Assembly: GCF_964188315.1 (NCBI RefSeq)
Contig: NC_135669.1
Coordinates: forward strand, 13,144,001 to 13,208,000
Source of the DNA: Podarcis muralis
Lineage: Eukaryota
Length of the DNA: 64,000 nt
Reading direction: 5' to 3'
The position numbers were made by a program, and so were the translations under genes. The notes under the pieces were generated by a model. The model had not been told where the DNA came from. It searched no databases and saw only the letters and a program-made list of their open reading frames with translations. Shown here in pieces: positions 15,734 to 44,940 of this stretch; positions within the stretch are counted from its first letter, which is position 1, and each line of letters begins with the position of its first letter.

Positions 15734-16144
15734 ACTAACGCACATCTATAGCTTCCCTTTCCACCCACTCTTCAGCATCTTGATGTGGTTTTGCCTGCAG
15801 TCCAATTGTATTATGGAGCAATGGCACTGGAAAAGCTGTACTAAAGAGCTACAGAAATCCCAATTATGTTTGCCAGGACTTTGCTAAAGACTGGCATGCA
15901 TTTTCATAGGCAAGACAGGGGTATGGTGATGGCTCAGAGCTCTGGCAGAACACAGGCCTTGCATACAAAAGGTCCCAGGTTCAATCGCTATAACCTCTGA
16001 TTAAAAACGGCTCTCTGATATTAGGTCTAGGAAAGACCTCTGTCCAAGATTTGCATCCACTGCTAATGAGTAAAATAAGCTTGTTTCACATCTAACACAA
16101 ATATTATACTGGCTATATATTTTAATTTATTTGCAAAGTCATAC

Positions 16145-16713
16145 CTGTATTGTGGTTTCCGAGGGTTGTTCTCTACATCCAGCAGCACATCGATAATCTC
16201 TGGCTTTTCCATCCTTTGTCCAATCAGGAAGAGAATAGCCATCATGCAACGGACCTGGTGGTAGAGGAATGCTTGGCCTGTCACTTCAAACAGGTACATT
16301 TGGAAAGGGTTGTGCAGCTCTGCATCCTCTGCTCTAGCCACGGGCTTCACCTCTGCAGTAAGAATTGTCCGTTGAAAGTTGGTCACACCGTTGGCTACAT
16401 CCATCTTGCATAGATTACGAAAATCATGGGTCCCCACGAGCTTCTGAGCTGCAGTATTCATGAGAGCTACATCTAGATCAGCACGAGGGAAGAAATAGCG
16501 ATAGGTCCTTTTGAGGCAACTAAACCTAGCACTGAAGCTGGGATCTACTGGGGCCCAAGCCAGTACCCGTATGTCATGAGGGAGCACTTGATTCAATATG
16601 TGTGTGTAGTGGATCTCCTCTGCAGTATTTGTGGCTGTGTCCCTCGTTGCACCCTCGGGTTTATTTGCTGCTTTATCCTTTGACAGGTTTGAGCGGAGAT
16701 CTAGGGAGATCAC
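16145..16713 (-). CDS. PUS3: PUS3 second coding exon
   Basis: VISLDLRS...FSARFSCLKRTYRYFFP...GTHDFRNLCK...GQAFLYHQVRCM...KPQY; 569 bp. Confidence 0.97.
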
Positions 16714-16947
16714 CTGAAACATTGGAGAAGGATAATATGGAGTAAAATATGCAAAAACAACACTATGGGCAGTATCTGGTGCCCTCATTCCGTGACACCC
16801 CCCCATGGGCACCTTGCACCATCCACAATCCTTGTGCAAACTGTACGAATGACTTAGCACGACTTTGGATACAAACCTAAGGGGGTAGATCCCAAGTTTG
16901 CCATACTTGGAGTAGACCCATTGAAATTAATGGGCATGAATAAATTA

Positions 16948-17313
16948 CCGTATTTTTCGCTCTATAAGACACACTTTTCCCCTCCTAAAAAGTAATGTGT
17001 GTGCGTCTTACGGAGAGTCTTATGGCACGAATGCAGGCTCCATGGCTTCGCGTTGCTTTTGCTGATGCCAGGAGAGCAAGAGGGGTCGGTGCGCACCGAT
17101 CCCTCTTGCTCTCCTGGCTTTGCTTCGTCAGAGAGGCTCTGCGCAGTACCCCTTCAGCGAAGCGGGAGGAGAAATGGAAGGGACTCTGTTTCTCCTGCTG
17201 CTTCGCTGAAGGGGCGCTGCGCAGAGGGAGAAAATTATTTTTTTTCTTGTTCTCCCCCTCTAAAACTAGGTGCGTCTTATGGTCGGGTGCGTCTTATAGA
17301 GTGAAAAATACGG
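16948..17313. mobile_element. Tc1/mariner-superfamily (pogo/Tc2-like) MITE
   Basis: TA|CCGTATTTTTCGCTCTATAAGAC...GTCTTATAGAGTGAAAAATACGG|TA. Confidence 0.85.
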
Positions 17314-17521
17314 TAGGTCCATTAATTTCAGTGTGTCTGCTCTGAGTAAAACATAGTTGAATACACCTCTAATATTTATTTTATTTTTTACGGAATCAAT
17401 GAGAATTTTCCAAATACGATGGTGTTGGTGTAGCTTCCTCAATGACTATTTGGACCTGAAATGATCTGGTGATAGGTTTTATCTTGCAGTCCTGGATAAC
17501 TCAGGCTACAATCTTTTACAT

Positions 17522-17710
17522 CAGGCACATCCAAAGTCCATCTCGGGGGCCTAATCCGGCCCCCGTGGCAGTATATGTCCTGGGGTAAAATCCTTTTTTA
17601 AAAAAAGAAGCTCAACAACTTTAATTCTAAAAAAACCTCAATGACTTTGGTCGGCCCTCACACATGTTCACTTCATCAAATCTGGCCCTCTTAAAGTTTG
17701 GGTACCCCTA
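17522..17710. mobile_element. Degraded hAT MITE
   Basis: TTTTACAT/TTTTACAC flanks; imperfect termini. Confidence 0.5.
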
Positions 17711-17978
17711 TTTTACACACTTTCCTGGGAGGAAGCCCCGTTGAATGAGTTTTGATATCAGCATATCTAATACCCAGTATTCAGCTCCACATTCAGCTAA
17801 GAACTCTTTGCTAAGCGGGAATATCACAGAAGGTAATGCTGTTGCCCCCACTTTATTTCATATTCTGCTGGATCCACATCCCCCCTCCCTCACCCTCTGA
17901 GCAGGTTCACTCATTTTCTGCTGTGAGTTGAGCAGGTTGGTTTCATAAAAATGGAGGATAGACAGATGCGGAACTCAC

Positions 17979-18356
17979 CTGTCCAAAGGCACTGACTCCC
18001 TTGTCAGTGCGCCCACAGCGGTGATAGTTGGAAGTCTGTCTGCTGGCTACCAGTCGGGTTTTGCTGAGAGCCTCAAACAGCTTTTCTTCAATAGTATTGT
18101 TGGTGTTCTCTTGGCTAGCAAAGCCCTGATATCCCCAGCCCAGGTAGGCTATCTTCAGCGCCACGTGTCTCTGGCCATAAGCACTAAAATCAAATGGCCG
18201 CTGCTGCCGTTTCTTAGTCTTCCCTGCTGCTGAGAGGCTGCCTTCTGTGCCTGCAGTCTGCTTGCTCTCTAGCTTTTCTTGCAGCCTTTGCACCATGTCT
18301 TCCAGTTCCTGGACTCTCTTCAGTAGCTTCTCTGTTTCTGCTCCATCTCTGGCCAT
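17979..18356 (-). CDS. PUS3: PUS3 first coding exon (TruA-family tRNA pseudouridine 38/39 synthase)
   Basis: RHVALKIAYLGWGYQGFASQE and catalytic CGRTDKGVSA; acceptor at 18368/18367 before the ATG; 378 bp. Confidence 0.97.
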
Positions 18357-19415
18357 TGTGAGAGTCCCTAGGAAGGGAAAACGAGTTTCTACAATTCAAA
18401 CTTTTGTATTTGCTGATAGAGGAGAGGCTGTTCAGCTGGGGACAGTCAACGTGCTACCCAGCTTTCTGCTTTTATTTTCTACCTATACTGTATTGCATAT
18501 TTGAACGTAATGAATTGTGAGTGCATGTCTTTCTCCATTTACTGATAAAGTCATACTAATTCCCAGTGGGCTTTCAGGACATGTTTTTTGTTTACATGGA
18601 CTGCAAGGTGTAGGGGACCGAAAGGGTTTGCTCTTGACACCCTTGGGCTACTCCTGCATAAGGAAACCCTTTTTGTTCTGAAGTGCACATATTTCATGTG
18701 AGATACTGGTCCGCCCTGTTGGGTCTCGCAGTTCCCAGTGTGAACTGAACGTGCACCATAAAGCATACTTAACATCAGGGAGGAAGATTTTCAAGTTGCA
18801 GGCAAACTGCCTTTCAGGGATTCAGATCCACCATTACTGATTCCCATTGTGGAATCTGATACATTACTAAACAGCCTCAGGATTTGCTGGAAAATAATTT
18901 GAAACCCACTAGTATAGCTAATAACTGTAAGACTTAACACGTTCTCCAACGTACTGCAAAGGGGGAACATTGTAACGCAGCAGTACTCAGGATTTTTATT
19001 GTATCCTAAGCTGACTTAAGTGAAAGCAAATTCTTGCTGGAAATAGGTAAATGACTATTCAGTCAGTGAATAAATTTAGTACAGTGGTACCTCGCTTTTT
19101 GAATGTAATCCGTTCCGGAAGACCTTTCAACTTCAAAAATGTTCGAAAACCGAGGTGCAAAGGATGGCCTGCAATTTCAATGGAGAAAATTGGGGAAAAC
19201 TCAGCGGAAAACTGTTCAACTTCTGAGGTGCGTTTGAAAACAGAAGCATTTACTTCTGGGTTTTTGGCGCTCAAAAACCCAAACGTTCGGCTTCTGAGAT
19301 GCTCAAAAACCGAGGTGCCACTGTACTTAAACTTGTTTTGGGTAGATATAGCACACTGTGAGAATTAACATCTCTCTCTTTTAGAATCAGTGACTGCACC
19401 AAGCCAAGAGAAGCA

Positions 19416-20321
19416 ATGGAAACATTCATGGGACTTGATCGTCCCCGCTGGGCCTCTATGAGCCATGAAGATCGGCTCAAAGAAGCTGCAATGGCATTCA
19501 TCCGCCTTTGCGCAGAACAGGGAGAAGGTGATAGCCCAAGGAAGATGTGTTTTGCACCTCAGCTGGACCCCTACACAAGAGCCTCGGTGGCCTCTTTGGT
19601 CAGACCCACACTTCCTGTGAAGATTAGGCATCTTCATTCGGGACCCACCTTGCAAGCAAAGACTCCCGAGGAACCCAGAGTTGCTAGGAAACCTATAATA
19701 AAAAGGAAAGTTCTGAGGCGAAGGCCTGATGGAGAAGTAGAGGTGACGGATGAGTCCATCACCAGCACACCAGAGACCAGCAGTCAGAGTGACCCCGAGT
19801 ATGGGGAGTTGAGTCAAAGAATGCACAGTCTGAAGACTCAGCAAGAGAAAGAAGAGTCCGAGGAGGAGAGCGAGCCAAGCATTTGCCCAGAGTCTGAGAC
19901 GGCTTATTCCTGGATAACTACAGAGAGCCAGAGCCAAAGCTCGCAAAGAGAGAGCCAGAGCCGCAGCAGCACATCCTATGAGCAGGACTTGATTGTTGCT
20001 GGCCACCCAAAATCCTTCATATTACCAAGATTTGATCAGCTAAGCCGGAACAGAATGAAGACCGACCGGGTAGCCCGTTACTTGGAGCATAAGCATGACT
20101 GGGAATCTCTGCGGCTACCCGGGGAAGATCCCAGGAAAGGGGTGCGCTGGAGCATCCGGGAACAGATGCTCTGCAAGTCAGAATTGCCTCCTAGGGCTCA
20201 GCACATTTATATTCCCAACAACTACCTGGTGCCTACAGAGAAAAAGAGGTCTGCCCTGCGCTGGGGAATACGCTGTGACCTGGCAAATGGCGTGATGCCT
20301 AGGAATACCTACTCCTCCTAG
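19416..20321 (+). CDS. HYLS1: HYLS1 centriolar/ciliogenesis protein, single coding exon
   Basis: 301-aa ORF with RKPIIKRKVLRRRPDGEVEVTDES and C-terminal KTDRVARY...YIPNNYLVPTEKKRSALRWGIRCDLA; acceptor at 19384; ATTAAA at 20731. Confidence 0.96.
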   Translation: METFMGLDRPRWASMSHEDRLKEAAMAFIRLCAEQGEGDSPRKMCFAPQLDPYTRASVASLVRPTLPVKIRHLHSGPTLQAKTPEEPRVARKPIIKRKVLRRRPDGEVEVTDESITSTPETSSQSDPEYGELSQRMHSLKTQQEKEESEEESEPSICPESETAYSWITTESQSQSSQRESQSRSSTSYEQDLIVAGHPKSFILPRFDQLSRNRMKTDRVARYLEHKHDWESLRLPGEDPRKGVRWSIREQMLCKSELPPRAQHIYIPNNYLVPTEKKRSALRWGIRCDLANGVMPRNTYSS

Positions 20322-21376
20322 AAATGCAGAGGTCTCTATAGTGCCATCCACAGGAGCATGCCTTGCTTAGCACAGCCCAAATATCTAACTACTCCAGGCA
20401 AGCAGCTAAGCTATTTTGTTTCCTTTGAAACCCTTTCAAATCCTTATTGGTTTTAAATCTGGCTTTCAGAATGAGTGTTCCCACAACACAAAAGGATTTT
20501 ACTTATTCGTGCTTCTTGAATAGTTGTCCCATATAGGATCATTTAGAGATTAATATTGCCTCATCAGAAGCCAGGCAGAAGATGAACCAAAGTTTACTGA
20601 AGTATATGTCAATGAGAATAATTTTTATTTTTATTGCAAGATCTTTTAAACCCACTTCCTCTTCCTAGCGCAATCATCATACTTCTGTATGATGTTGTTT
20701 TTAAAGAAAGTTTAGCTTCTAGATGTATGGATTAAATTAAAAGTGTGTGGTATAAAAGGATTGCCTCTAGTTTCTCTATTGACTAGTTAATTTGTTGAGA
20801 AAGTAATATTTTATCCGGAACAGAAGGCAGGTCAAAAGCTTCACCTCATTTATCAATTGTTGTTGTGTGGGACTGCTGTGCTACATTGTAAACAACTCTT
20901 CACTTTCAAGTGGGTATGTGGTTCTTTTCCAATTGGGAATATTGTCTTGGTTCATATCTATGTATTTTTTAAAACAATTTTATTGAAGGTTTTTAACATG
21001 TTAAGCAATAAAATCCAAACACATTTATAAAACAATAAAAATATATTAAAAAAGAGAGTAATAATAAAATACCTATATACAGGCAACTCACAGTTTAGGT
21101 GCCAAACCTAGAAGTAGCCCCAAAACATCACTGATAGTGGAGGGGTGGAGCACAGTGGGCGTCCACATGCTCCCCTATAAACCAGAATTACTTGTACTAA
21201 GGTTCTCGTGCAAAGTGCTTTTCTTCTGTTCTAAGTTTCTTTCCCTACGTGGAAACACTACGGATATAATGAAATATGGGTTGCATATTGGAGAAGACAA
21301 TGGACAATTGGAGAAGATTTTAATTATGCCTGGCTGTAAGCGTAAGCACCAGTGAACACACTGAAACTTCTGAGTA

Positions 21377-21583
21377 CAGTGGACGCTCAGGTTGCGAATG
21401 TGATCTGTGTGGGATGCATGTTTGCAACCCGCAATGGTGCGTCTGCGCGGGTTGCAATTCGGCGCTTCTGTGCATGCGTGACCGCCAAAACCCAGAAGTA
21501 TCCCGTTCTGGTACTTCCAGGTTTCAGCGCGTCTGTAACCCAAAAAATGCAACCTGAAGCGTCTGTAACCTGGGATATGACTA
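21377..21583. mobile_element. Tc1/mariner-type MITE with asymmetric ends
   Basis: CAGTGGACGCTC at one end and a CAGTCATA-type end at the other; related copies at 38875-39118 and 56627-56866. Confidence 0.7.
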
Positions 21584-22084
21584 TATAGTGGAGCAAGGAA
21601 ACTGCTTTAGCCAGAAGGAAGGCTGCTTTTCCTTCTGGGTAATATACCAGTGGTGGGTAGGGCTGAAGGGGGAGAAATGGGCAGAATAACTGGTCCAAAT
21701 TCTATCTTTGTACAATGGGCTAATTTCTACACACGCCTGCACACACCTCTGTCCTCTGTTCAGACTAGAGATGGGAAGGCCTGGAAAAAACCTAGAAAAC
21801 GGAGGGTAAGCTTTGGGGGGGGAAAGCCCTGGTTTTTTTCTGGGTTTTTCCCAGGCCTTCCTGTCTCTAAGACAAGCAGTATTGTGGCATGATTTTCATG
21901 GGTAAGAACTCATTGGGTACATGAACTGCCAGAATCTGTAAAACTTGAGCTAGTTGACACTTTTTCTTACCCTTAATGTGAAATTACAGCCCAGTTAGCT
22001 TAATGTTTTTTCCTGGTAAACTGGTGGAAACTGTTAACAATAAAATTACCAACCCTATAGAAGTCTTGCTGATAACTTCTGTAA

Positions 22085-23545
22085 GGGTAAGTCTTGTCTA
22101 CCTAACCATTTTAGAGTTCTGCGAGAGTATTATGCAAATGGGGTGATCTTGGATGTGTACCTGGACTTAACTGGTTAAAGAATGCTAAGCGGAGAGTAGG
22201 ACTAATTGACAGTTCTAACAATGGAAGGCTTTAGTAAGCAAGGTTCTCCCAAGATCTGTAATGAAAACAGCTTTTTAACTTATTCATAACTCTGGAATCA
22301 GGGAGCAGTGAGGTGGCCAAGTTTGCTGATGACACCAAATGGTTTAAGGCAGAGCTTTCCAAACTTTTCACGCTGGCTTTTTAGGCGTGCATCATTTCAT
22401 GACACAGCAATTCAGTTTTGCATCATTTCGCGACACAGTAATTCAGTTTTACTATCAAACCAGAGGTTAAACTAACCCTTTTCCCAGCCCGGAAGGAGCA
22501 TTTGTGGGACCCACCTACACACAGCAGCCAACACACTAACATGTCACAACATACAGTTTGGAAAGCTCTCATTTAAGGTGATTAAAACCAAAAGGGATTG
22601 CCTGGAGCGCCAAAAGAATATCTCCTGACTGGGTGAAGGACCATTAAAAATGCATACAATCTTAGTTGGAAGGGATCCCCTAAAGGTCCAATCCCCTGCA
22701 ATACAGGAATCTCAACTAGATTTTGACAGAGTCCACCACCTCTTGTGGGAGTCCATTCCACTGTCAAACAATTCTGTCAGAAAGTTCTTCCTGATGCTTA
22801 ATCGGAATCACCTGTATTACAACTTGAAGCCATTGGTTCAAGTCCTATTTTCCAGAGAAGGAGAAAACAAGCTTGCTCCATACTGCATGTGTCAGCCCTT
22901 GAGATATCTGAAGATAGCTATCACCTCTCAGTCTCCTCTTTACCCAATTCCCTCAACCGTTCTTCATAAGGCTTGGTTTCCAGACCCTTTATCATCTTGG
23001 TTGCCCTTCGCACATATTCCAGCTTGTCAATATCCTTAACAGAACTGGACACAGTACTCCAGGTATAGTCAGACCAGGGCAGAATATAGTGGGACTATTA
23101 CTTCCCTTGATCGGTGGAAAGTGATGCATGCTGATGCAAAAAAACCCCCAATAACTTCCCATGTATTTATAGCGTCTGAACTGGTGTTAACTGGCCAGGA
23201 AGGAGATTTGAGAGTTGTGGCAGATAGCTTGAGAAAGATGTTTTCCTAGCATGCAGTAGCTATGAAAAAGGCAAATTCCATGTTAGGGATAGTTAGGAAA
23301 GCGATTGAAACCACCAACAGGAGGCCCTTATACAAATCCATGCTGCAACCACACTTCGAATAGTGTATGATTCTGGTTGCCGTACCTCAAAAAGGCTCCT
23401 GCACATCAAGAAAATGGCAACCAAAATGATTAAGGGAGTAGAACAACTCCACTATGAGGAAATGTTACAGCATTCAGGGGTTTCTAGCTTATAAAATGTG
23501 GGCATGATAGAGGTGCTAAGATTCTGCAAGGTGTGGGGAAAGCAG
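22085..23545. mobile_element. Nested degraded CR1 LINE fragments
   Basis: FADDTK-like coding stretch at about 22321, KKANSMLG-like at about 23265; opposite-strand CR1 piece at about 22660-23110. Confidence 0.6.
22350..22570. mobile_element. hAT MITE inserted in CR1
   Basis: CAGAGCTTTCCAAAC inverted termini; GTTTAAGG/ATTTAAGG duplication. Confidence 0.75.
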
Positions 23546-24364
23546 TTTTTTCTTCCTACTATGTGAAGATAATGCTAGAACACAAAGTCAACCGACACCA
23601 ATTCTCTACTGACTGTTTTTTTAATTAAAGAAAACAAGTATACTAGAAAAACATTAAAATATACTGTTATTGGACAATTGAACACACTGGTCCATGAGAA
23701 TAGGCATGCATTTAAGTGCTTTTTGCACCAGTGAATCGAGCAGCCTTATCCTGTGTATCTTTATTCGGAAGTAACTGCTATTGAGGTCAATGAAGCTACC
23801 TGCTAAGGATTACAACATCCTAGATGCATCTTTACTCAATGGGATTTCAAACCCTGCACCCAGTGAGTGTGCGTAGCAGAAGATGAGCCCTGTTGGATCA
23901 GGCCGATGGTCCGTCCAATCTAGCATCCTGTTCTCACAGTGGCCATCCACGTGCCTACGAAACATCAGCAAGCAGGACCTGCGTGTTCCCCACGTGCGGT
24001 TCTCAGTACTTCGAACACGCGTGATCGTGGCTCAGGGTTTGAAGTCGGGCCACTAATTTCGGACAGAAACGGCCAGTGTAAGAGCTAATCACGGAAGGCT
24101 AATCAGAACAGGCCAACTAGTAACACCCCCCAAAACCCCCATATATATATAATTTTCAAAGGGTTCAGAATTGTTATATGTACAGCGGTGGGGGAGAGAC
24201 GGGCGATCCAATCAACACCGCCATAAGGCTGCCTGTGAAGGCGATCAGCTTCATTAAGGGAGCGATCCTAAACGCACTTACTCAAGAGTAAGCCCATCGA
24301 ACACTGTGGGATTTGCTCCCGTGTTAAAACATGCGCTGTGAACGCGCGACTCCCGTGTTCCTAC

Positions 24365-24450
24365 CTTTTACGCAGACGTTCGTTGAGAGCAAAAGCCTCT
24401 GAGCGCAGGCATGCCGCCCCGTCCACGATTTCTCCGCAGGAAATGACGTA
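24365..24450 (-). other. PUS3: Probable non-coding exon 1 of PUS3
   Basis: AAG|GTAGG donor at 24365/24364 inside a CpG-rich patch; the coding exon below needs an upstream exon; 5' end approximate. Confidence 0.5.
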
Positions 24451-24620
24451 AAGGCTTCCCTCCCCCAACACATGACACAGAGGAGGTTTGTGGGAAATGT
24501 AGTCTTTCTCTAGAAAGCGGCCAGATTAGCCGTTTACTTCCCACAGCAGGCAGCCAAATGTTTTTGGAAGGTTACAGAAGGTTATCCTGAACGGGATAGC
24601 CCTCCCCTCCTTGTCTGACG
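24440..24620 (-). promoter_or_regulatory. Probable PUS3 promoter
   Basis: TGACGTAA at 24444 and TGGGAAATGTAGTC (ZNF143/THAP11-type ACTACAnnTCCCA motif) at 24491-24504 in CpG-rich sequence. Confidence 0.55.
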
Positions 24621-24761
24621 CCAGCCCCAGAGATATGCTGCCTCTGACATGGAGGCTCCATTTTAGTTATCATGGCTATTAATCATTGAAAACTTTATCC
24701 GCCATAATATGTAAACTCATGAGCTACTGAATTGAGGTGTTAGGCAAAATATTACTGTTTT

Positions 24762-25328
24762 TTATGCAACGAATTGAAGAAAATGTTCCATTTAACATTT
24801 GTTAAAAAACCTGAAGCATTTTTATTAGGGATTGTAGGGAAAGATCTGCCAAAAAAGCTGAAAAACATCTTCATGTATGCGACAACGGCCGCAAGAGTTT
24901 TAATAGCGCAAGGATGGAAGACTGAAGAAACCCCAACTAAAGAATCATGGCAAGAAAAATTGATGGACTATGCAGAACTGGCAAAACTGACATACAAGCT
25001 ACGGGACAAGGATAACTGTGACTTTAGATATGAATGGGAACCCTTTACAAAGTATTTGAAGACGCAATAAAGCGAACTGGACTCCTTGGCTGGTTTTGAA
25101 TAAACATTCACAAACTTTTTATTGATAATAATCAGCTAAATAGTTTGAGGATCTATACAACTGTGTAACATGCAGAAAACAGCATTTTTAGAGAAATCAA
25201 AGACTGGAACTGAGGGAAGGTGGGGGGGTCTGTGGGGGGGGAGGGAGGTAAAATGGGGGGGGAATAAGGATGATGTGTTTCTGGATAATATGTTTTGTTT
25301 TAATTTTGAATAAAAAGTTATTTAAAAA
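24762..25328 (+). mobile_element. 5'-truncated L1-clade LINE
   Basis: ORF2 C-terminus KKPEAFLLG...YATTAARVLIAQGWK...WQEKL...WEPF, 3' UTR and A tail; ATTACTGTTTT duplication on both sides. Confidence 0.85.
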
Positions 25329-25430
25329 ATTACTGTTTTAATTCCGGCCTCAATGGTTGCTTCTATTTCAACAATAATTTAGTGTCCAGGGTGCTTCTTG
25401 AGAAGCATTCACCTCAGCTTATTGCCGTAC

Positions 25431-25954
25431 TGTAGCCTTATTAATCCACGGGTAGGAATAATTGTTGCACCCGAGCAGAGACAAAAGGAGCCAAACGACA
25501 CCAAGGGGTTAATCCAGAGAAAGAGCGTTTTATTCTGCCATCCGGAGGGGCAGAAGGCACCTGTGTGGTTCAGTTCACAAAAGACAGGCCGCACCGAAAA
25601 CATTTTACAAGCAGGTTTTATCCTTTTTTGCAAACCCCTTTTTTCCTCTCCCCCTTCACAGGTTCTTACATAGAAATGTTGCTTTTCGTTCTCTGGCTTT
25701 GTTCCCGGAAGTATGTTGCAAGTCAATGTACCAGGACAAGGTTATTTGGATCTGGGAAGCGAAAAGCTTTTCTGTTCTCAGCTATGGGTTTGTTACAGCG
25801 TTTTTGTTACAGAGAGGACTGCTTAGCTCATGCTTTTTGTCTTAGAGGAATATGCAGTTTTAAAAATGCGTACGCCGAGGCCTGGCTGGGGGGGGGGGAA
25901 TTCATAAACAGTTTTTTTAGGGCTTTCTGGGGTAACCCTAACTGTACCCCTTCA
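25431..25954 (-). repeat. ERV 3' LTR (524 bp)
   Basis: Matches 30477-31001 by eye except 11 vs 12 G in a G-run; AATAAA on the minus strand near 25528; preceded by purine-rich GAGAGGTATGGAA. Confidence 0.95.
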
Positions 25955-25987
25955 TTCCATACCTCTCAAATTTGGACAGCCTTTTTC

Positions 25988-27322
25988 TTAAAAAGGCTCG
26001 TCCCAGGAAGGCACAGGCTGATATTCTCGGGTCAGAGCTATAATCTGGGGGCGAAGCATGCGAGAAATCATATTGCGTGTCATTGTATGCAAGCATTGCA
26101 GCAGGCAAGGTACAGAAAAGCAAAAAATTAGCAAAATGAAAAGTGGGCCTAGCAGCAGCAAAAACAGGCCTTTTACCCATCCTAGTTTTGGCAACCAGTC
26201 AAGCCATGACATGTCCCATCCCTCCCAGGTTTGGGTAGGAATATGGGCCACTGTTTCAAGTCCTGCTGCCAAATTGCGAATGGCCTCACCATGATCAGAG
26301 ATGTTAAAGCAACAGGCCCCACCTGTGAGATTTAACGCTGCACAAAAGCCGCCATGTTGCGCCAGGAGAAATTCCAACGCTAATCGGACTGAGAGAAACG
26401 CATTGCGTGTCTCATCCAATTGCGTGGCAATTAGCCTAAGGGTCGTGGCTGTCGTGTTAGCAACAATCTCTACCACTGCCTGGAGTCTGATTACGCGGTT
26501 CAAGTTATAGATCGGCCCCCTTGCCCCAGAGATTTTCTCTCCCCGATTCCATGAGGCTGGAGCATAATGGGCCAGTATCCTTTCCGGAGGCCACTGATTT
26601 TTGCCCCAATTCTGGGAGCTGCCACCTGCAAGTATTGCCAGGTCAGCCGAACGCCTCCTTCTACGGGGTGCAGAGGCAATCTGGTCAGGAATCCACATGG
26701 GGGGTATTAAGTAGGCTGGAAAACAGACCCCATACCATCCTCTTGGGAGGGCATGATAGGCCTTCCTGCCACACACCCAGTAAACGTCCTGACCATGGGC
26801 AGATATGGTGCCTCTCAGTAAGCGGGCCAGGCATGCAGTCAAATTGGAACCAGAAAAGGTTCCTGTCTTGGACTCAGGCATGTTAGTTGGGGCTGGGAAG
26901 GTACGATCACAGTGGGAAGTGCCCACATAGGTCTGAGAGTCAGTTGCGTCATTTGATTTGTTGACACAAAGGCAGCCAGTGATCCTGTGAACCTGGAAAG
27001 GGACGGAATGATTCCATAAAGAAGAATGGTTGCCCAGAGGCTGGAAGGCAACAAGTGGAGTTGTAACCAAGGATTCATTCCAAGGCACAGGGAGGAGTGG
27101 CATTCCTCCCAGAGCATCTACAGGGGCCAGAGTGCAGACGGCACAATTGGTCCGATTTGCAGAGAACGCAACCATCTCAGCAACCTGAATCCACTTATTA
27201 TATGTGTGGTGGGCCCCCCACGATTGCAGCAGTTGTCTGGTCACTGTGAGTGGTATTGGTATTTCAAAGGTCAAAGGCAGCAGAAATACCAGCATGGGGA
27301 CCCACAGTCGTATTTGAGCCAT
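25988..27322 (-). CDS. env: Intact retroviral envelope ORF (444 aa from ATG 27322)
   Basis: Signal peptide, CAVC (CXXC), YWVCG...LPRGWYGVC, RRRRR furin site, WPPERIL...PIYNLNRVIRLQAVVEI, ISD-like segment, CX9CC, TM helix, YQPV tail; no stops. Confidence 0.95.
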   Translation of the reverse strand: MAQIRLWVPMLVFLLPLTFEIPIPLTVTRQLLQSWGAHHTYNKWIQVAEMVAFSANRTNCAVCTLAPVDALGGMPLLPVPWNESLVTTPLVAFQPLGNHSSLWNHSVPFQVHRITGCLCVNKSNDATDSQTYVGTSHCDRTFPAPTNMPESKTGTFSGSNLTACLARLLRGTISAHGQDVYWVCGRKAYHALPRGWYGVCFPAYLIPPMWIPDQIASAPRRRRRSADLAILAGGSSQNWGKNQWPPERILAHYAPASWNRGEKISGARGPIYNLNRVIRLQAVVEIVANTTATTLRLIATQLDETRNAFLSVRLALEFLLAQHGGFCAALNLTGGACCFNISDHGEAIRNLAAGLETVAHIPTQTWEGWDMSWLDWLPKLGWVKGLFLLLLGPLFILLIFCFSVPCLLQCLHTMTRNMISRMLRPQIIALTREYQPVPSWDEPF

Positions 27323-28462
27323 TGTATGCACGGGGAGGGGCTTAGGTAAGTGCTAGAGAGTGGGCTGGGGTGTAATCACGCTGAAAGAAAGGACCCACTA
27401 GGCACCCTCCTCTGCAGGGGTGGCGTAAAACAAACTAGGCCCAGGTACCTTCAATAAAGTTCAGTTATGCAAAAGGAAAGAAAAGAAAATGTGAAAATGT
27501 CCTCTTTCAATCCATGCTGGATTCTGGAGCCGTGCCAAGCGTCAGCGTCCGGAGTGACGTAGGCAGGGCGGTAGTCTGGTGGGCGTTGGGTCGTCTGGTG
27601 GGCTTTGGGCATCTTGGGTCTCTTCCAACAAGGCTGGAGCGATGTCTGGGCGTCTGGGTCCTCTGGTGGGCGGTGTAGATCAGGTGTCACAGATGCCGGT
27701 GACTTTAACAGCTGTAGATAAACAGGACAGCCTCTGGCCGGTTTACCTGTCAAGAGAAGAGAAAAACAAAGACGGCAGCGATTGCACAGAACAAATTGAT
27801 AGATAACATTTGCACATAAGGAATATTAACTCAAAGGGGACAGCATGGCAAGAAAATTTGCAAGGGGACATGGCAACCCAGTTTGACAGTCCTGTTGCAT
27901 GGGTTAAGTTGCCAGCTGAGATTTTTCAAAGTCCTATTTGTGTGCTCTAAGTTTCAGAGCTTTAAGCCATGTTGCAAATTTCAGTTCATTTGCCAGTGTC
28001 TGTAGAAAGAACAATGCGCTCCTTGCTTCTGGCAAAGTTTCAAAATTCCTATGTTATGCTGCGGCTCCTTTTTCAGAGTAAAATTGCACCTTAAAAAGAA
28101 AAACTTGACAAAGTTCACAGAAAGCATTCACTTGCTTTTTAAGAAAGTCACTTTCCAGGTTAGTACTTTGGGGCAAAGCCTTGGCATTCTGGTTTTTATG
28201 TGGCTGAACTGTAAATCCAGAAAGTGTGAGGTTCAGGGTAGCTGGCTGAATGCAGCAGTGTCCTTCTTGGAATAGCTGCCAAGAGATAACGCTCTGAAGC
28301 TACCTCCAAGCGCCTGGCACAAAGGGGGGGGGGGGAGCTGATGTCCTGTTACATGCATGATTTAAAAAAAAACAAAACAACAACAGTCTGTTCACTTGCT
28401 TTTTCGCTGCAACAGTCTTTTGAGCAAGAACAGAGATGAAAAGAAATCATTTTTGAGAAATC

Positions 28463-29777
28463 TTATTGTTCCCAGCCTTTGGGAGTGGGGTGTGTCGGGC
28501 GTGGGGCCTGTGGGCATTCCATTTCCCAATGACTCCCTTGCCTGCAGATGGCGCACTGGCCTCTTCCCTAGGCGTCTTCTGACCCTCCCATGGACACCCT
28601 CACTCGCTCCAGGATTGCGTTTTTGGCTTTCTGGCTGCTGGCTGTTTGAAGACAAACCCCTAAGTATTTTGGCTGGGTCCTCTTCGATTTTTCCAATTGC
28701 AAATATCGGAGCTTGTAAAAGGGACATGTTGAATGGTAAAGGTCCTTGGTGGTCTAACACCCCGATCATTTGGCTGTTCCAAAGGATCATACACTTGCCT
28801 GAGAGGGGCCACCACAGTGGGTTTGGACAAAGCCTTCGATTTAAGTGTCTCTACATGTTTTGTTGCCCTGTCCCACGCTGTTCTCAAAACCTTTTGCCTT
28901 TTTCTCCAATTCTCATCCTGGCACTGGGCTGCTTCTAGAACCCAGGGGGCCACATCCAGTTCTGTTTTAAACAGTTCTACATACTGGAACACTCTGTCAA
29001 ACTGCTTACTAGTCCATCTTATCTCTTTATCTAGAGTTTTTCTGAAGTCTTCATCATCATCATTATCATCATCACCTTTCTCTTCACCTTCCTTGCTTGC
29101 ATCACAAGGGGGTTGGGGAGGGGCTGAGGGGGGAATCTTCTCATTTGGGTCCTCAGTCTGGGCAGTGGGCGGAGAAGCAGCCCTATTTGCTCCCAGATTT
29201 GGTTGCCTGGGCGCAGTGGCTGCATATGGTGGTGGTGGGGTAATTATCTCCTCTTCCAGGACTGGCAAAACTGGTGGCTTTTTAACTTGTAATTGTACTG
29301 AACACAGTTACAGATAGGTAGCCGTGTTGGTCTGCCATAGTCAAAACAAAAAAAAATTCCTTCCAGTAGCACCTTAAAGACCAACTACCGTAAGTTAGTT
29401 CTTGGTATGAGCTTTCATGTGCATGCACACTTCTTCAGATACACTGATCACAGTTTGACTTGGACAGTCACAATTCTATTTTTCCGAAGCCATGAGGGAT
29501 TTTGATCCACATTGGCTTTCCAGATAGAAATATAGGGAATCTGATCTGTGTGGGCCTTGAAAATGTTACTCCATAAAATGTTGACCAAGTTTGGATCAAA
29601 GGATCCTCCAGTAGGCCATTCTGGTAAATACGAAGGCCAGTCAACTTCACATAAATGTTGGAGTCTGCTTTTTCTGAGTTTACATCCCCACTCTTCTGCT
29701 TTCATGGCACATTTCCAGTTTTCCAGAAAGCTCTGTAGTGGTGTCTCAAGAATTATATTACTGCTTTTATTTCCCAT
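28463..29777 (-). pseudogene. gag: Disrupted gag (MA, late domains, start of CA, NC knuckle)
   Basis: MG start; MA-like CEVDWPSY...WPTGGSF...HTDQIPYISIW; PPPPY and PSAP; APLRQV...HVPFTSSDICNWK; CAICRQGSHWEMEC at 28514-28555 in another frame; TAA at 28463. Confidence 0.9.
29310..29455. mobile_element. 146-bp insertion in gag, Penelope-like terminal-repeat fragment
   Basis: CACAGTT duplicated at 29303-29309 and 29449-29455; same sequence in opposite orientation at 44081-44580; family assignment from recall only. Confidence 0.7.
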
Positions 29778-30454
29778 GACTCTGGGATCCTGGGGACACT
29801 GGGACACTCAGCCCTCCTAACGTTATTTTTTTTTCACTCAGTCACAGGCCAGACGTTGCTTTCAACGCCTCACACACTCAAAACATTCACTGGAGTGTCC
29901 CCACACGCACATTCAGAAAAACCCATGCACCTCCCCCAATCCCCCCTTCCCTCCCCCCAAAAAAAACCAAAACCACAACCGGCAGCGCTTAGACTTCGAC
30001 CGGGGCCCAAGAGCACCTTTTTTTTTTTTTTTTTTACTGCTTCTTCTGGGCACAAAACCAACAACCAACCATAACCGGCAGCGCTTAGACTTCGACCGGG
30101 GCCCTAGCAGCACCCTTTGCTGCTTTTTCTGGGCGACACCAAAACCAGTGGCACTTCGTCTACCCTGCTGGCGGAGTTGATCAGACTCTCTTTTTGCTCG
30201 CACCTATCCTTGTGGAGCTTGCTCCCACCTATACCCTGTGGAGCTTACCTTTTTCCTCGAGGTACCTTCTTTCTGCACGGCCGTTGCTCTTTCTCTCCGT
30301 CACTTTGTCGCGTGTCCACTCAGGAACGGGTGGCCAGTCCCTCCCACGAAGTTGGCAGGATGTGCACTGGAACTGCTGACCCGGTATCCCGAGCTGCTCG
30401 CCTTGCAGTGACGCCCTGGACCTCTTTGTCCCTCGATCTCGGGGAACGTGCTTA

Positions 30455-30472
30455 TTCCCGGCCAACGCACCA
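30455..30472 (-). other. Primer-binding site for tRNA-Gly(UCC)
   Basis: Minus strand TGGTGCGTTGGCCGGGAA; the plus strand TTCCCGGCCAACGCACCA equals the 3' 18 nt of vertebrate tRNA-Gly(UCC) as recalled. Confidence 0.85.
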
Positions 30473-30476
30473 GAAA

Positions 30477-31001
30477 TGTAGCCTTATTAATCCACGGGTA
30501 GGAATAATTGTTGCACCCGAGCAGAGACAAAAGGAGCCAAACGACACCAAGGGGTTAATCCAGAGAAAGAGCGTTTTATTCTGCCATCCGGAGGGGCAGA
30601 AGGCACCTGTGTGGTTCAGTTCACAAAAGACAGGCCGCACCGAAAACATTTTACAAGCAGGTTTTATCCTTTTTTGCAAACCCCTTTTTTCCTCTCCCCC
30701 TTCACAGGTTCTTACATAGAAATGTTGCTTTTCGTTCTCTGGCTTTGTTCCCGGAAGTATGTTGCAAGTCAATGTACCAGGACAAGGTTATTTGGATCTG
30801 GGAAGCGAAAAGCTTTTCTGTTCTCAGCTATGGGTTTGTTACAGCGTTTTTGTTACAGAGAGGACTGCTTAGCTCATGCTTTTTGTCTTAGAGGAATATG
30901 CAGTTTTAAAAATGCGTACGCCGAGGCCTGGCTGGGGGGGGGGGGAATTCATAAACAGTTTTTTTAGGGCTTTCTGGGGTAACCCTAACTGTACCCCTTC
31001 A
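30477..31001 (-). repeat. ERV 5' LTR (525 bp)
   Basis: TGAAGGGG...GGCTACA on the minus strand, followed by TTTC and the primer-binding site. Confidence 0.95.
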
Positions 31002-31274
31002 GTACCACCCTGAACATGCGCAATCTCGGACCATCATTATGCCCTCACAAAAAAGTGCTTGGAGTTTATTCATTTATTTAAGAATAACTAGTAATAGATA
31101 CCAAAGCAACATATTCATAGCCAACATCTAAATGTTCAAAATATTCCAGACCAGACCAACTATCAGGTTCACGTGAAAGGCCCATTAATTTCAATGGTTG
31201 TGAGTAGAAGTATGTTGAATACAACCCTTGGAATATGAAGGAAGGTATAGAAATTTAATAACAATATTAATGTT

Positions 31275-31277
<3 letters not shown>

Positions 31278-31324
<47 letters not shown>

Positions 31325-31722
31325 TTATTATTTATACCCCACCCATCTGGCTGGGCCTCCCCAGCCACTCTGGGCGGCTTCCATAGAAACCAAAAATACA
31401 GTAAAATATCACACGTTAAAAACTTCCCTGAACAGGGCTGCCTTAAGATGTCTTCTGAATGTCAGGTAGTTGTTTATCTCTTTGACATCTGATGGGAGGG
31501 CGTTCCACAGGGCAGGCGCCACTACTGAGAAGGCCCTCTGCCTGGTTCCCTGTAGCATTGCTTCTCGCAATGAGGGAACCGCCAGAAGGCCCTCGGCGCT
31601 GGACCTCAGCGTCCGGGCAGAATGATGGGGGTGGAGACGCTCCTTCAGGTATACTGGACCGAGGCCGTTTAGGGCTTTAAAGGTCAGCACCAACACTTTG
31701 AATTGTGCTCGGGAACGTACTG
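31278..31722 (-). mobile_element. L2 LINE 3' fragment with long (AAT)n tail
   Basis: Same L2 C-terminal translation as 11871-12288. Confidence 0.85.
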
Positions 31723-31944
31723 GGGTTTTTTAAAGGAAAACCACCATCATCACATAGAATCACTGAGTTGGAAGGGAGCCTAAGGGTCATTTAGTCCAAC
31801 CCTCAACAATGCAGGAATCGTAAGTAAAATAGAAACATCGCCACCCAACCTCACCCCCACCCATCTTTCCCCCCCTCCACCTCTTTCCCCCTTTTCTTCC
31901 CAATGTCTCAACAAATGAAACTGATTTGTAAAAATGTTACATGG

Positions 31945-31947
<3 letters not shown>

Positions 31948-31980
<33 letters not shown>
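31948..31980. repeat. (AT)n microsatellite
   Basis: Direct reading. Confidence 0.95.
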
Positions 31981-31984
<4 letters not shown>

Positions 31985-32652
31985 AAGAGACATTGCACAC
32001 ACTTTTGTAAATCAAGAAAATCTTTAATTAAAACAACAACAACACAGGAATCTCAACTAAAGCATCCATGACAGGCCATCCAACCTCTGCGTAAAAACCT
32101 CCAAGGAAGGAGCGTCTACCACCTCTCGTGGGAGTCCGTTCCACTGCCAAAAACCTCTTACTGCCAGAAAGTTTCCCTTACGTTTAGTTGGAATCTCCTT
32201 TCTTGCAATTTGAAGCCATTGGTTCAAAGTCATGACATCGATGTTCCTATTTTATTTTTCAAGCTTATGTTTGTTTGTCTATTTGTTTGTCGATGCCTTC
32301 GGCAGGCTTGGTCTAGAAAGGTGTGGGTGGGTGTTTCTAAATATATACATTTAACTATTACATCTACTCAAAAGTATTATTGTTTATTAAATTTCTATAC
32401 CACCCTTCATCCGAAGACTACAGGGGTGGTTAATAATAATAATTTATTATTCACACCCCTGCCCATCTGGCTGGGTTTCTCCAGCCACTCTGGGCGGCTA
32501 CCAATATTAAAAACACGATAAAACATCAAACATTAAAAACTTCCCTACACAGGGCAGTTTACAATATAGGCAACCATGCAGAGGGCCTTCTCGGTAGCGG
32601 CACCCGCCCTGTGGAACGCCCTCCCATCCGATGTCAAGGAAACAAACAACTA

Positions 32653-34177
32653 CAGGTGAAACTCGAAAAATTAGAATATCATGGAAAAGTTCGTTTATTT
32701 CAGTAATTCAACTTAAAAGGTGAAACTAATATATGAGATAGACTCATGACATGCAAAGCGAGATATGTCAAGCCTTTATTTGTTATAATTGTGATATTAT
32801 GGCATACAGCTGATGAAAACCCCAAATTAACAATCTCAGAAAATTAGAATATTGTGAAAAGGTCCATAACAACTGTAATGGGTTCCTGAGCCTTTAAATG
32901 GTCTCTCAGCCTGGCTCAGTAGGAAGCACAATCATGGGGAAGGCTGCTGACCTGACAGTTGTGCAGAAAGCAATCATTGAGACCCTCCATAAGGAGGGAA
33001 AGCCTCAAAAGGTAATTGCAGAAGAAGTTGGATGTTCCCAAAGTGCTGTATCGAAGCACATTAATGGAAAGCTATGTGGAAGGGGAAAGTGTGGGAGAAA
33101 AAGGTCCACAAGCAGCAGGGATGACCGCAGCCTGGAGAGGATTGTCAGGAAAAGACCATTCAAACGTGTTGGGGACTTTCACAAGGAGTGGACTGAGGCT
33201 GGAGTTAGTACATCAAGAGCCACCACACACAGACGGATCCTGGAGATGGGCTTCAAATGTCACATTCCTCTTGTCAAGCCGCTCCTGAACAAGAAACAAC
33301 GTCAGAAGCATCTTACCTGGGCTAAAGAAAAAAAAAAGAACTGGTTTGTTTCTCAGTGGTCCCAAGTCCTCTTTTCTGATGAGAGCAATTTTTGCAGCTC
33401 ATTTGGAAACCAAGGACCCAGAGTCTGGAGGAAGAATGAGGAGGCACACAATGCCAGATGCTTGAAGTCCAGTGTGAAGTTTCCACAGTCTGTGTTGATT
33501 TGGGGAGCCATGTCATCAGCTGGTGTTGGTCCACTGTGCTTCATTAAGTCCAGGGTCAATGCAGCCATCTATCAGGAGATTTTGGAGCACTTCATGCTTC
33601 CTTCCGCAGACGAGCTTTATGGGGATGCTGATTTCATTTTCCAGCAGGACTTGGCACCTGCCCACACTGCCGAAAGTACCAAAACCTGGTTCAGTGCCCA
33701 TGGGATTACCGTGCTTGATTGGCCAGCAAACTCGCCTGACCTGAACCCCATAGAGAATCTATGGGGCATTGCCAAGAGAAAGATGAGAGACATGAGACTG
33801 AGCAATGCAGAAGAGCTGAAGGCTGCTACTGAAGCATCCTGGTCTTCCATAACACCTCAGCAGTGCCACAGGCTGATAGCATCCATGCCACGCCGCATTG
33901 AGGCAGTAATTGATGCAAAAGGGGCCCAAACCAAGTACTGAGTACATGTGCATGCTTCTACTTCTCAGAGGTCCAATATTGCTCTATTTGCAGTCCTTGT
34001 TTTGCTGATTTCATTTAATATTCTAATTTTCTGAGATTGTTAATTTGGAGTTTTCATCAGCTGTACACCATGATCATCACAATTATAACAAATAAAGGCT
34101 TGACATATCTCGCTTTGCATGTCATGAGTCTATCTCATATATTAGTTTCACCTTTTAAGTTGAATTACTGAAATAAA
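32653..34177 (+). mobile_element. Tc1-family DNA transposon, IR/DR type, right end truncated
   Basis: TA then CAGGTGAAACTCG left IR of about 215 bp with repeated AAAATTAGAATAT; right IR 34017-34177 lacks the outer 41 bp. Confidence 0.92.
32934..33941 (+). CDS. Tc1 DD34E transposase, uninterrupted 335-aa ORF
   Basis: HTH region (GCSQSAVSKH), FSDES, FQQDLAPAH, WPANSPDLNPIENLW; 34 residues between D2 and E. Confidence 0.92.
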   Translation: MGKAADLTVVQKAIIETLHKEGKPQKVIAEEVGCSQSAVSKHINGKLCGRGKCGRKRSTSSRDDRSLERIVRKRPFKRVGDFHKEWTEAGVSTSRATTHRRILEMGFKCHIPLVKPLLNKKQRQKHLTWAKEKKKNWFVSQWSQVLFSDESNFCSSFGNQGPRVWRKNEEAHNARCLKSSVKFPQSVLIWGAMSSAGVGPLCFIKSRVNAAIYQEILEHFMLPSADELYGDADFIFQQDLAPAHTAESTKTWFSAHGITVLDWPANSPDLNPIENLWGIAKRKMRDMRLSNAEELKAATEASWSSITPQQCHRLIASMPRRIEAVIDAKGAQTKY

Positions 34178-34499
34178 TGTTTTGTTTTTATCGCATTGTT
34201 AATATTCTGTTCGGAGCCGCTCACAAGTGGCTGGGGAAACCCAGCCAGATGGGCGTGGTATAAATAAATGATTCTTCATTATTATTTATTATTATTTATT
34301 ATAAAAACACAAAAAATACATCCCACTGAAGCTCCATGGGGCGAGGAGGGAACCTACACAGGCAAGGAAGTGCGAATATGTCTTTAAAACACGTCTCTAA
34401 CCAGATTAGAGAGCCCCGCCTCGGAGCAGAGATCAAACGGGCGCGCGGGCGTTCTAGAACGCCCGTGGGCACATCAAACGACCCCCTTCGAACGCCCGT

Positions 34500-34600
34500 T
34501 TCTCCTCCGCCTCCTCACTTTCCCTGTCTCCATGGCAACCCCGGCCCCGCCCCGCCGGGTATAAATATTTACCAGTTTCCACTCGCCCCCGCCCCTTTCC
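34500..34600 (+). promoter_or_regulatory. DDX25 promoter: X-box, GC boxes, TATA
   Basis: GTCTCCATGGCAAC 34526-34539, GGCCCCGCCCCGCC 34543-34556, TATAAATA 34560-34567 in a CpG island. Confidence 0.65.
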
Positions 34601-34692
34601 CTGCCTTCACGCGAGGCTCCCGCGTCTCAGGGCCTCGTGCTGCTGCGGCGACGCCTCGCGCGGCCGGCGCGTTGAGCTTGCCCGGCGGGTGG

Positions 34693-34803
34693 ATGGACCA
34701 GTGGGCAGAACGGCGGCTGGGCGAGATGTGGCCGAGGCGGGGCAGCTTGGGGAAGGGGCAGGAAGCGAGTTCCCGCGGGGTCGCCGAATCTCTGCCTCAG
34801 AAA
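34693..34803 (+). CDS. DDX25: DDX25 probable coding exon 1
   Basis: ATGG about 130 bp after the TATA box; MDQWAERRLGEMW...SLPQK; GTAAGG donor; poorly conserved region, so the start codon is uncertain. Confidence 0.6.
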
Positions 34804-35834
34804 GTAAGGGAAGACGCCAGGGACTAGCGCCTTGAGTTCCTTTTAAGTTCTCTCTCTTAACAGCTTTTCTAACAGCGTCTTCGAGCCCTCCTTCTTCCCC
34901 CTCCGCTTTTTTTTGCGTGTTCTGACCCGCAGTACTTCCTTCCTTCCTCCTCCTCCTCTCTCACACATGCTTGCTGGAGATGGAAGCCAAAGCTGACCTC
35001 CAATTTTATATAGGGGATGGTTTTTGGCAGAGAATGGGCTCTCTGCACATGCTCGAAGGTCCCTTTCTAAAAATTATTTCCGCACAAGTTAAGGCTGTGC
35101 TTCCTGCTAGCTCCCACAAAGAGCTCTTGTTGCAGGGTCTCAATTTGCAGGTTTTTAGGGACAGGCGTAGCTGCCCTGTGTCATTAGCTTAGGTCATTTG
35201 CACACATACCTCAGTATTGTCTACACTGACTGGCAGCATGCTCCAGGGTTTCAGACAGGGGACATTCCTAGCTTTACCTGCTCTATCACTGAACTATGAC
35301 CCTTCCAGTTTGAAGTTGTTGGCATTATATATCAGATGTCTCGTTTTGAACAATGACCTGGAAGAGCTTTTGTCCTAGAAGGCAGGATATAACCCATATA
35401 TGTGTGTAAAAAAAAGGTAAAGGACCCCTGGACATTTAGCACCTAGCCCACCATCACTCTCCCCCCCACCCCAATGCATCAACTCAGTTATGTGACCCCT
35501 GAGCTAAGGAGATAAGTAACTCTACAACCTTTAGAAGACATCTGAAGGCAGCCCTGAATAGGGAAGTTCTTTAATATTTTATTAGGTTTTTATATGTGTC
35601 GAAAGCAGCCCAGAGTGGCTGGGGCAACCCAGCCAGGTGGGTGGGGTATAAATAATAAAAGTATTATTATTTATAATAATAGGACATCTCTATTTTCATC
35701 GGGGAAATGTTGGAGGATATGCAACCAGAAACCCAATGGAAGTCAGTAATTCTGCTGCTGTTTGTTTCCTAGCTACTGCTTGTTGTGTCTGAAGATTTTA
35801 CTTGGCTGTGCTGATCAGTAGCTACTGACTAATC

Positions 35835-44080: not shown

Positions 44081-44580
44081 TGTATCTGAAGGAGTGTGCA
44101 TGCACACGAAAGCTCATACCAATAACAAACTTAGTTGGTCTCTAAGGTGTAGGGACACGGGTGGCACTGTGGGTTAAACCACAGAGCCTAGGACTTGCCG
44201 ATCAAAAGGTCGGGAGTTCGAATCCCCACAATGGGGTGAGCTCCCATTGCTCAGTCCCTGCTCCTGCCAACCTAGCAGTTCGAAAGCATATCAAAGTGCA
44301 AGTAGATAAATAGGTACCATTCCGGTGGGAAGGTAAACGGCATTTCCATGCACTGCTCTGGTTCACCAGAAGCGGCTTAGTCATGCTGGCCACATGACCC
44401 TGAAGCTGTACGCCGGCTCCCTCGGCCAATAAAGCGAGATGAGCGCTGCAACCCCAGAGTCGGCCACGACTGGACCTAATGGTCAGGGGTCCCTTTACCT
44501 TTACCTTTAAGGTGCTACTGGAAGGAATTTTTTTATTTTGTTTTGACTACGGCAGACCAACATGGCTACCTACCTGTAAC
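44081..44580. mobile_element. Second copy of the same short Penelope-like element, split by a Sauria SINE
   Basis: TGTATCTGAAG...TAAGGTG [SINE 44152-44508] TAAGGTGCTACTGG...CTACCTACCTGT. Confidence 0.65.
44152..44508 (+). mobile_element. Sauria-type SINE
   Basis: Full length; TAAGGTG duplication. Confidence 0.88.
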
Positions 44581-44940
44581 TTGTTTCAGTTACATATATC
44601 CTTCCTCATTATTATTTCCTTGAAGCAGGAACACTCCTTAGGACCCCCGGCTTATTAACTCTGTAGCCCAAAAGCTGGGATCCCCTCCAAACCTGCGCCA
44701 AAGTTTTGCAGCCATTTTATGACAAAAACGCCACATTTTGCTGCGCTCCCCCAAACTGAGTAATTGATACATTAACCTGGGGCTCGAAGTTAACACCCAA
44801 AATTCCAATGGTGTCTGAGTCTCTTCAAACCAGTGCCAAAGTTTGGTGATAGTTTTGCAGCACTCCACAAACTGAGAAGCCCAGACCATTGGAATATTGT
44901 TGTCTTTTTGCGTTAATCCCAACTTGATTCTCTGTTTCAG

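Follow-up and report, generated by a model that had tools for sequence, protein, structure and literature searches.

A recently integrated, pol-less endogenous retrovirus of the wall lizard Podarcis muralis that has kept a whole env gene

The locus and the anatomy of the provirus

An endogenous retrovirus (ERV) occupies positions 25431..31001, on the minus strand, of a 64,000-nucleotide stretch of Podarcis muralis contig NC_135669.1 (positions 13,144,001 to 13,208,000), which is referred to here as the window and contains no N. The two long terminal repeats (LTRs) align with 0 substitutions over 524 bp, the sole difference being one extra G in a G-run, and both possess TG...CA ends with GTAC at each outer flank. 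The original prediction, made from the letters alone, of matching LTRs, a GTAC duplication, a perfect primer-binding site and a stop-free env of 444 amino acids held in every part. Its view that the copy is recent is likewise upheld by the absence of LTR substitutions, which places the 95% upper bound on LTR divergence at 0.57%. A search of the window with the LTR found no solo LTR and no second copy of the element.

The coordinates of the features are collected in Table 1. The TG...CA LTRs, the short duplication, the primer-binding site, the imperfect purine tract and the matches to Gag_MA and TLV_coat are those of a class I (gamma-like) ERV, to which the element is assigned here. Relatives carry Gag_p30 and MLVIN_C; the element itself has no reverse transcriptase (RT). 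The 18 letters of the primer-binding site are the same as the 3′ end of a tRNA-Gly template given in the available text of bioRxiv 10.1101/400127. The leader is presumed to be the packaging region; its repeat, like the hammerhead monomer described below, folds no better than shuffled sequences. Two ATGs separate the strong candidate splice acceptor at 27746 from the env ATG, while none lies between the candidate acceptor near 27380 and that ATG.

Table 1. Features of the provirus and of the neighbouring genes (positions in the window; CpG o/e, observed-to-expected CpG ratio; ORF, open reading frame)
Feature	Position	Strand	Remarks
Target-site duplication GTAC, left	25427..25430		
3′ LTR, 524 bp	25431..25954	-	AATAAA ~100 nt from LTR end
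Polypurine tract, imperfect (11/13 purines)	25955..25967	-	sequence inspection
env, 444 aa	25988..27322	-	ATG 27322, stop 25988; TLV_coat E 3e-11
Candidate env-proximal splice acceptor near 27380	27370..27390	-	putative; located by eye; failed the acceptor filter
Integrase-tail remnants, scrambled, with short internal repeats	27541..27715	-	
Strong candidate splice acceptor (17/19 pyrimidines)	27746..27770	-	
AT-rich, CpG-poor spacer of ~730 bp replacing pro-pol	27753..28480		CpG o/e 0.23
Nucleocapsid zinc-knuckle remnant	28505..28588	-	frame differs from upstream gag; stop precedes
gag middle region and capsid start	28659..29296	-	frame altered near 28685; large deletion in the capsid just past 28659
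Penelope-like repeat fragment in gag	29297..29455	-	minimal hammerhead motif 29405-29442, viral sense strand
gag matrix ORF, 109 aa, stops at insertion	29448..29777	-	Gag_MA E 2e-12
5′ leader, CpG-rich	29778..30454	-	splice donor candidate 30248; duplicated 41-nt unit 29971-30011, 30067-30107
Primer-binding site	30455..30472	-	18/18 to tRNA-Gly 3′ end; 4 nt inside 5′ LTR
5′ LTR, 525 bp	30477..31001	-	
Target-site duplication GTAC, right	31002..31005		
Pseudouridine-synthase gene coding exons	16063-18395	-	acceptor just before its ATG
HYLS1 coding exon	19416-20318	antisense to PUS3	301/301 identical to P. muralis; 4 residues differ from P. raffonei, P. lilfordi

The HYLS1 match agrees with P. 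muralis as the most likely host. The next non-viral CpG island upstream lies at 34251-35000 and is followed by DEAD-box helicase exons on the plus strand. Both the names used for these genes, PUS3 and DDX25, and their order follow human synteny. The provirus probably lies sense-wise in the intron of the PUS3 5′ untranslated region (18395-34900), downstream of the antisense HYLS1 exon, where it could trap or terminate host transcripts. A Tc1/mariner transposon at 32694-34177 has terminal repeats of 102 nt that are perfectly complementary, and its 347-aa transposase (32898-33941, plus strand; DDE_3 and HTH_Tnp_Tc3_2) is free of stops; it too inserted very recently and probably lies in that PUS3 intron.

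Remains of gag and pol

Gag was compared with Podarcis Gag and Gag-Pol proteins from a HMMER search (10 matches, the best at 37-53% identity). The matrix is kept at 29744-29487 with 59% identity to a Podarcis reference, and the middle region and the start of the capsid are kept at 29280-28684, with 9 further capsid residues in a second frame; the zinc knuckle follows in a third frame, behind a stop codon. The frame changes near 28685 and again near 28575-28590. The capsid domain spans residues 298-492 of the reference and is nearly all missing, with only about the first 20 residues left and ~180-200 codons absent near 28655. The lesions that had been read from the letters, namely an insertion (here at 29297-29455), two frame changes and a large capsid deletion, were all recovered. 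However, ~970 bp of surviving gag is free of stops, so that what sets gag apart from env is chiefly large deletions. Template jumps can create large deletions in a single step.

The insertion in gag matches a second repeat, at 44081-44590, at 86-90% identity. A minimal hammerhead motif is present in both repeats (2 matches in the window, 0 in 100 shuffles); Rfam returned no match for a hammerhead. The core, a long helix II, an unpaired base before position 10.1 and a palindromic 15.2-16.2 are all found, and the available text of PMC4209133 gives these minimal-hammerhead features for Penelope-like elements, in which the G10.1-C11.1 pair is highly conserved. Hammerhead-bearing Penelope elements are described in Anolis in the available text of PMC11167929. 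The insertion, which has no ORF, is read on these motifs as a probable fragment of a Penelope-like element. A CpG-type change has destroyed the G10.1-C11.1 pair in the gag copy; the second repeat retains the pair but is altered in the core. That second repeat is split by a short interspersed element (SINE)-like insertion with a short duplication.

The original prediction that no pro/pol motif is visible was right for most of pol but not for all of it. Five Podarcis Gag-Pol proteins gave no tblastn match better than E 1.9 to protease, RT or RNase H anywhere in the element, and only ~1150 bp separates the zinc knuckle from env. Remnants of the integrase tail nevertheless survive at 27541-27715. 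Two segments within 27541-27651 reached ungapped scores of 72 and 59 against P. raffonei Gag-Pol (maximum 41 in 60 shuffles); the third, at 27692-27715, is identical at 8/8 residues, and its score of 37 lies inside the null range and is not significant alone. The remnants stand out of their normal order, and they likely survived because they adjoin the strong splice acceptor. Their core matches to the P. raffonei Gag-Pol family (10/12, 8/8 and 13/15 residues) are far closer than those of gag, at only 37-59%. The element may therefore itself be a recombinant, with that family as a helper candidate. XP_053225778.1 is one of the Gag-Pol proteins.

Since the integrase core is missing from the reference Gag-Pol models, its absence from the element is judged by Pfam and by length. 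The gap is common to the five Gag-Pol models of P. raffonei (P0045 and P0057-P0060), and in them differing upstream points join the same downstream residue; the junctions most likely reflect gene models using one splice acceptor.

Decayed pol was considered as the origin of the spacer. It was unsupported by tblastn with the five Gag-Pol proteins, Pfam, Rfam, self-comparison of the window and the ESM Atlas (an 81-aa frame), in none of which the spacer had a match. The Pfam scan of 27350-28660 covered 27 of the 43 stop-to-stop frames of at least 25 aa, including 20 of 23 on the minus strand. The spacer also holds a 14-nt word twice (28127-28140 and 28391-28404), which could be an RNA element or chance.

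The env gene, its family and the age of the lesions

The predicted Env possesses a hydrophobic N-terminus, a CxxC at residue 60, a furin site at 220-224, a CX9CC at 327, one membrane span at ~380-415 and 9 N-glycosylation sequons. In the available sections of bioRxiv 10.1101/2024.03.17.585361, Hotzel describes the Podarcis group 1 Env as having a short surface subunit (SU) without an N-terminal receptor-binding domain (RBD), a CxxC ~40 residues into the mature protein and a CX9CC in the transmembrane subunit (TM). The protein encoded here shares the short SU without RBD, the CxxC position and the CX9CC, although its SU after the CxxC is ~14 residues shorter than the quoted 175; those sections give no account of proviruses. 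With CX9CC in TM, CxxC near the mature N-terminus and no N-terminal RBD, the protein belongs to group 1 of the EnvR supergroup, and its short length is natural because it is of this type. It aligns over its full length to Podarcis relatives with few gaps. An internally deleted gene was considered and ruled out, as both its length and the spacing of its motifs agree with those of Podarcis relatives and of the published group 1 type.

A search of the protein collection returned env relatives in 8 clusters, the 4 closest of which hold 18 proteins at 81-98% identity (14 from P. muralis and 2 from P. lilfordi). Three of the 18 are alternative models of the same loci, leaving 15 distinct family rows, so that the env is one of a multi-copy family with distinct proteins in two species, as had been expected. 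Five of these rows run from first Met to end, five begin at a later Met and five are cut at the C-terminus. The nearest relatives are 96.5-97.5% identical. Other env clusters in Podarcis hold 56 and 2 members.

Six of the 15 rows (P0004, P0016, P0017 and P0019-P0021) match this copy over residues 50-350 (13-16 differences in 301), but their tails depart from its own at 43-45 of 91 residues; XP_028602404.1 is a protein of the second tail type. Trees of 14 rows, from which the five truncated rows were left out, place the mosaic tail beside that of P0023, an env of P. raffonei (95/94), and keep the ectodomain of the six within the family of this env. These alignments and trees show an exchange of the env ectodomain by recombination just after the CX9CC region. 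Furthermore, the six rows are tighter, and the named ones are from P. muralis only, which suggests that the mosaic subfamily received the ectodomain; the tree is unrooted there and the direction not proven. Among the truncated proteins, P0012/P0011 and P0013, two env copies with 9 differences in 280 residues, stop identically at residue 329, short of the membrane span; they may share a truncation, which would yield a secreted Env, or represent a single orthologous locus.

The original prediction also held that env had stayed under selection, and here the evidence is divided. In its favour, env showed no excess in relative rates against P0023 (32 v 30 and 29 v 29), while the matrix did in one comparison (13 v 3, p 0.02; the others 11 v 3, 14 v 5 and 15 v 7); the middle of gag gave 16 v 11, 9 v 9 and 16 v 10; tests with P0045 or P0054 as mutual outgroups were set aside, as these are probably sisters. 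The CpG depletion of gag, given below, stands on the same side. On the other side, a low-power test for constraint in the env family, which left out three duplicate gene models, found 8 of 19 shared substitutions and 10 of 27 singletons in conserved columns, where 45% is expected. In addition, this copy has Glu at residue 317, against Asp in every one of the 16 other rows that span it (13 of the family and 3 outgroups); we take this residue to lie within the immunosuppressive domain. The ~970 bp of gag is also stop-free, and the neutral survival of an ORF of the size of env, under an assumed indel rate, is 0.23-0.59 at 1% drift, 0.05-0.35 at 2% and 0.001-0.07 at 5%, so that chance could have kept open an env that differs so little from its relatives. 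Selection on env is thus weakly supported by these comparisons.

A related proposal is that env is on its way to being co-opted by the host, to block receptors or for fusion, perhaps with the PUS3 promoter driving it by splicing into the viral acceptor. A whole env with all processing motifs, the likely sense position in the PUS3 5′ intron and the strong acceptor at 27746 would suit it. However, the two ATGs beyond that acceptor and the private change at an otherwise invariant residue do not, and a locus this young is no sign that the host has selected for retention. With LTRs free of substitutions and a multi-copy family, the locus differs from an old single copy with decayed LTRs. We regard co-option as very improbable, and this part of the original prediction is not sustained.

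The claim that the element was already defective when copied fared better. Against the 15 family rows, this copy has six private env residues. Had these changes arisen after integration, ~6 LTR substitutions would be expected and 0 are seen (Poisson 0.002, conditional 0.014), assuming neutrality and no unseen closer copy. The CpG o/e is 0.19 in gag (9 observed, 47 expected), 0.39 in env, 0.52 in the LTR and 0.68 in the leader (gag against env, p 0.03), and both LTR and leader are CpG-richer than the flanks. At least 6 structural lesions stand against an LTR divergence of at most 0.57%. Because of the private env changes without LTR change, the CpG loss in gag, the change in the hammerhead and the count of lesions, it is supported, indirectly, that the lesions predate the insertion and that the source had aged in the genome. 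In line with a gag-dead family, two word searches that used the matrix ORF as query gave 0 relatives in the protein collection, at 65-209 aa and at 192-2000 aa alike, and none of the 10 gag matches exceeds 53% identity.

Several points weigh against this conclusion. Of the several rate tests, most fall short of significance. The word search also passed over relatives of 50-59% identity, and the protein collection, which includes the neighbouring HYLS1, does not contain this env; an annotation gap may therefore account for the missing gag relatives, though a gag-dead family also fits. No annotated copy is closer than ~97-98%, and hence no sister from the same source was seen. The 13-bp repeats that flank the Penelope-like insertion differ at one base, and this mismatch was set aside as a clock; the second copy of the repeat starts with similar letters. 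Lesion inheritance rests on one DNA copy and on protein proxies, not on junctions shared at other loci.

A competitor to inherited lesions is an old provirus that decayed in place, its LTR identity being due to gene conversion or to assembly collapse. Such decay would explain all lesions, the CpG loss of gag and the private env changes together, and it agrees with the lack of a near-identical sister copy. However, the G-runs of the two LTRs differ in length, so that one LTR was not simply copied from the other in assembly; both junctions and the duplication are perfect; and the LTR and leader are CpG-richer than the flanks. Moreover, an env left open after drift matching the state of gag is improbable without selection, as the survival values at 2% and 5% indicate. 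Decay in place is therefore considered quite improbable.

Mobilisation by a helper and comparison with known systems

The element has no pol, keeps its cis signals and integrated recently, which are the marks of a non-autonomous ERV. Because it has no enzyme genes and yet shows correct integrase-made ends and a GTAC duplication, it must have been copied by another virus, and the predicted mobilisation in trans is thereby supported. We consider it probable that the provirus is a recent copy of a helper-mobilised, non-autonomous class I (gamma-like) Podarcis ERV resembling the chicken EAV-HP. The source would have been an older genomic element that already lacked pro-pol and most of the capsid and had taken up the Penelope fragment and an unrelated spacer. 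Its RNA would have kept the LTRs, the tRNA-Gly primer site, the leader, the splice sites and the purine tract, and would have been packaged, reverse-transcribed and integrated by the Gag-Pol of a related helper provirus, while env would have been spliced and expressed. The survival of env may be due mainly to its position in the retained 3′ end and to the youth of the family, with some selection in the recent past possible. Through recombination, the family and a second lineage have exchanged env ectodomains.

A more specific proposal is a two-partner system, in which an env-only family supplies Env to env-less gag-pol elements that copy it in return. A whole env beside dead gag and pol, an env rate no higher than that of relatives, many env proteins with no close gag in the protein collection, the retained splice donor and acceptors, and integrase-tail remnants far nearer to P. 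raffonei Gag-Pol than gag is, as from a co-packaged partner, are all compatible with such a system. However, no env-less partner was seen in the protein data, in which Gag-Pol and env proteins are not linkable to loci, and the abundance of other Podarcis env families suggests that helpers probably have their own Env. Transfer into the second env subfamily went by recombination, for which complementation by protein is unneeded. Furthermore, there is no signal of constraint within the env family, and at least 5 of its 15 proteins are C-terminally truncated. We consider this system rather unlikely. A broader version, in which a family dead for gag and pol in every copy persists as a mobile cassette for env, its envelope being among the smallest of the gamma type, and provides Env to env-less gag-pol partners, donates its ectodomain to other lineages by recombination and still inserts into genes, is unlikely.

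Helper-driven mobilisation, the preferred explanation, has several implications. First, the provirus is evidence that a helper has recently driven ERV activity in wall lizards, by way of a pol-less element invisible to RT-based screens. For example, the screen of PMC10435555 included P. muralis and starts from RT homologues and intact genes; in its available text and 12 of its 14 supplement files, Podarcis appears only in the species list. Second, a whole minimal EnvR group 1 env with visible ectodomain exchange provides a natural case for the study of env capture. Third, should the position in the PUS3 intron be right, this sense provirus, which brings a splice acceptor and two poly(A) signals, becomes a candidate for a regulatory polymorphism. 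The literature searched, which held few subscription papers, gave no account of this proviral family or of a pair of env-only and env-less ERVs, and only such a partnership, once proven, would make the result surprising.

Env recombination and defective proviruses that keep env are reviewed in PMC10536682, and several known systems can be compared as the available text of the cited papers describes them. Dog CfERV-Fc1(a) likewise comprises young gamma-like proviruses with inherited lesions that spread by complementation, the youngest being mostly env-open (PMC6407205); its lesions are mostly small or in env, and no wholesale replacement of pol is seen in that text. The D-type of ERVK[2-1-LTR] in cattle, mouse ETn and koala recKoRV are likewise complemented in trans, with the centre swapped for other retroelement sequence and the flanks kept (PMC10924933). 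In contrast to the Podarcis element with its whole env, they keep no functional gene (in the D-type, none is intact).

The closest likeness is to EAV-HP, known from the blue-egg insertion in chicken, which shares identical LTRs, the lack of pol, a retained env, spread attributed to a helper and the passing on of env by recombination. EAV-HP is the env donor to ALV-J, and its helper spread is presumed (PMC3747184, PMC4607243, PMC10820513). It is alpha-related, whereas the Podarcis element, with its tRNA-Gly primer and an env of the EnvR type, falls in class I; for the EAV-HP insertion one protein with matches to gag and env is predicted, whereas the Podarcis element has a separate env ORF and a dead gag. 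The architecture is thus not new, as EAV-HP has the same, and the Podarcis element is a new example of it.

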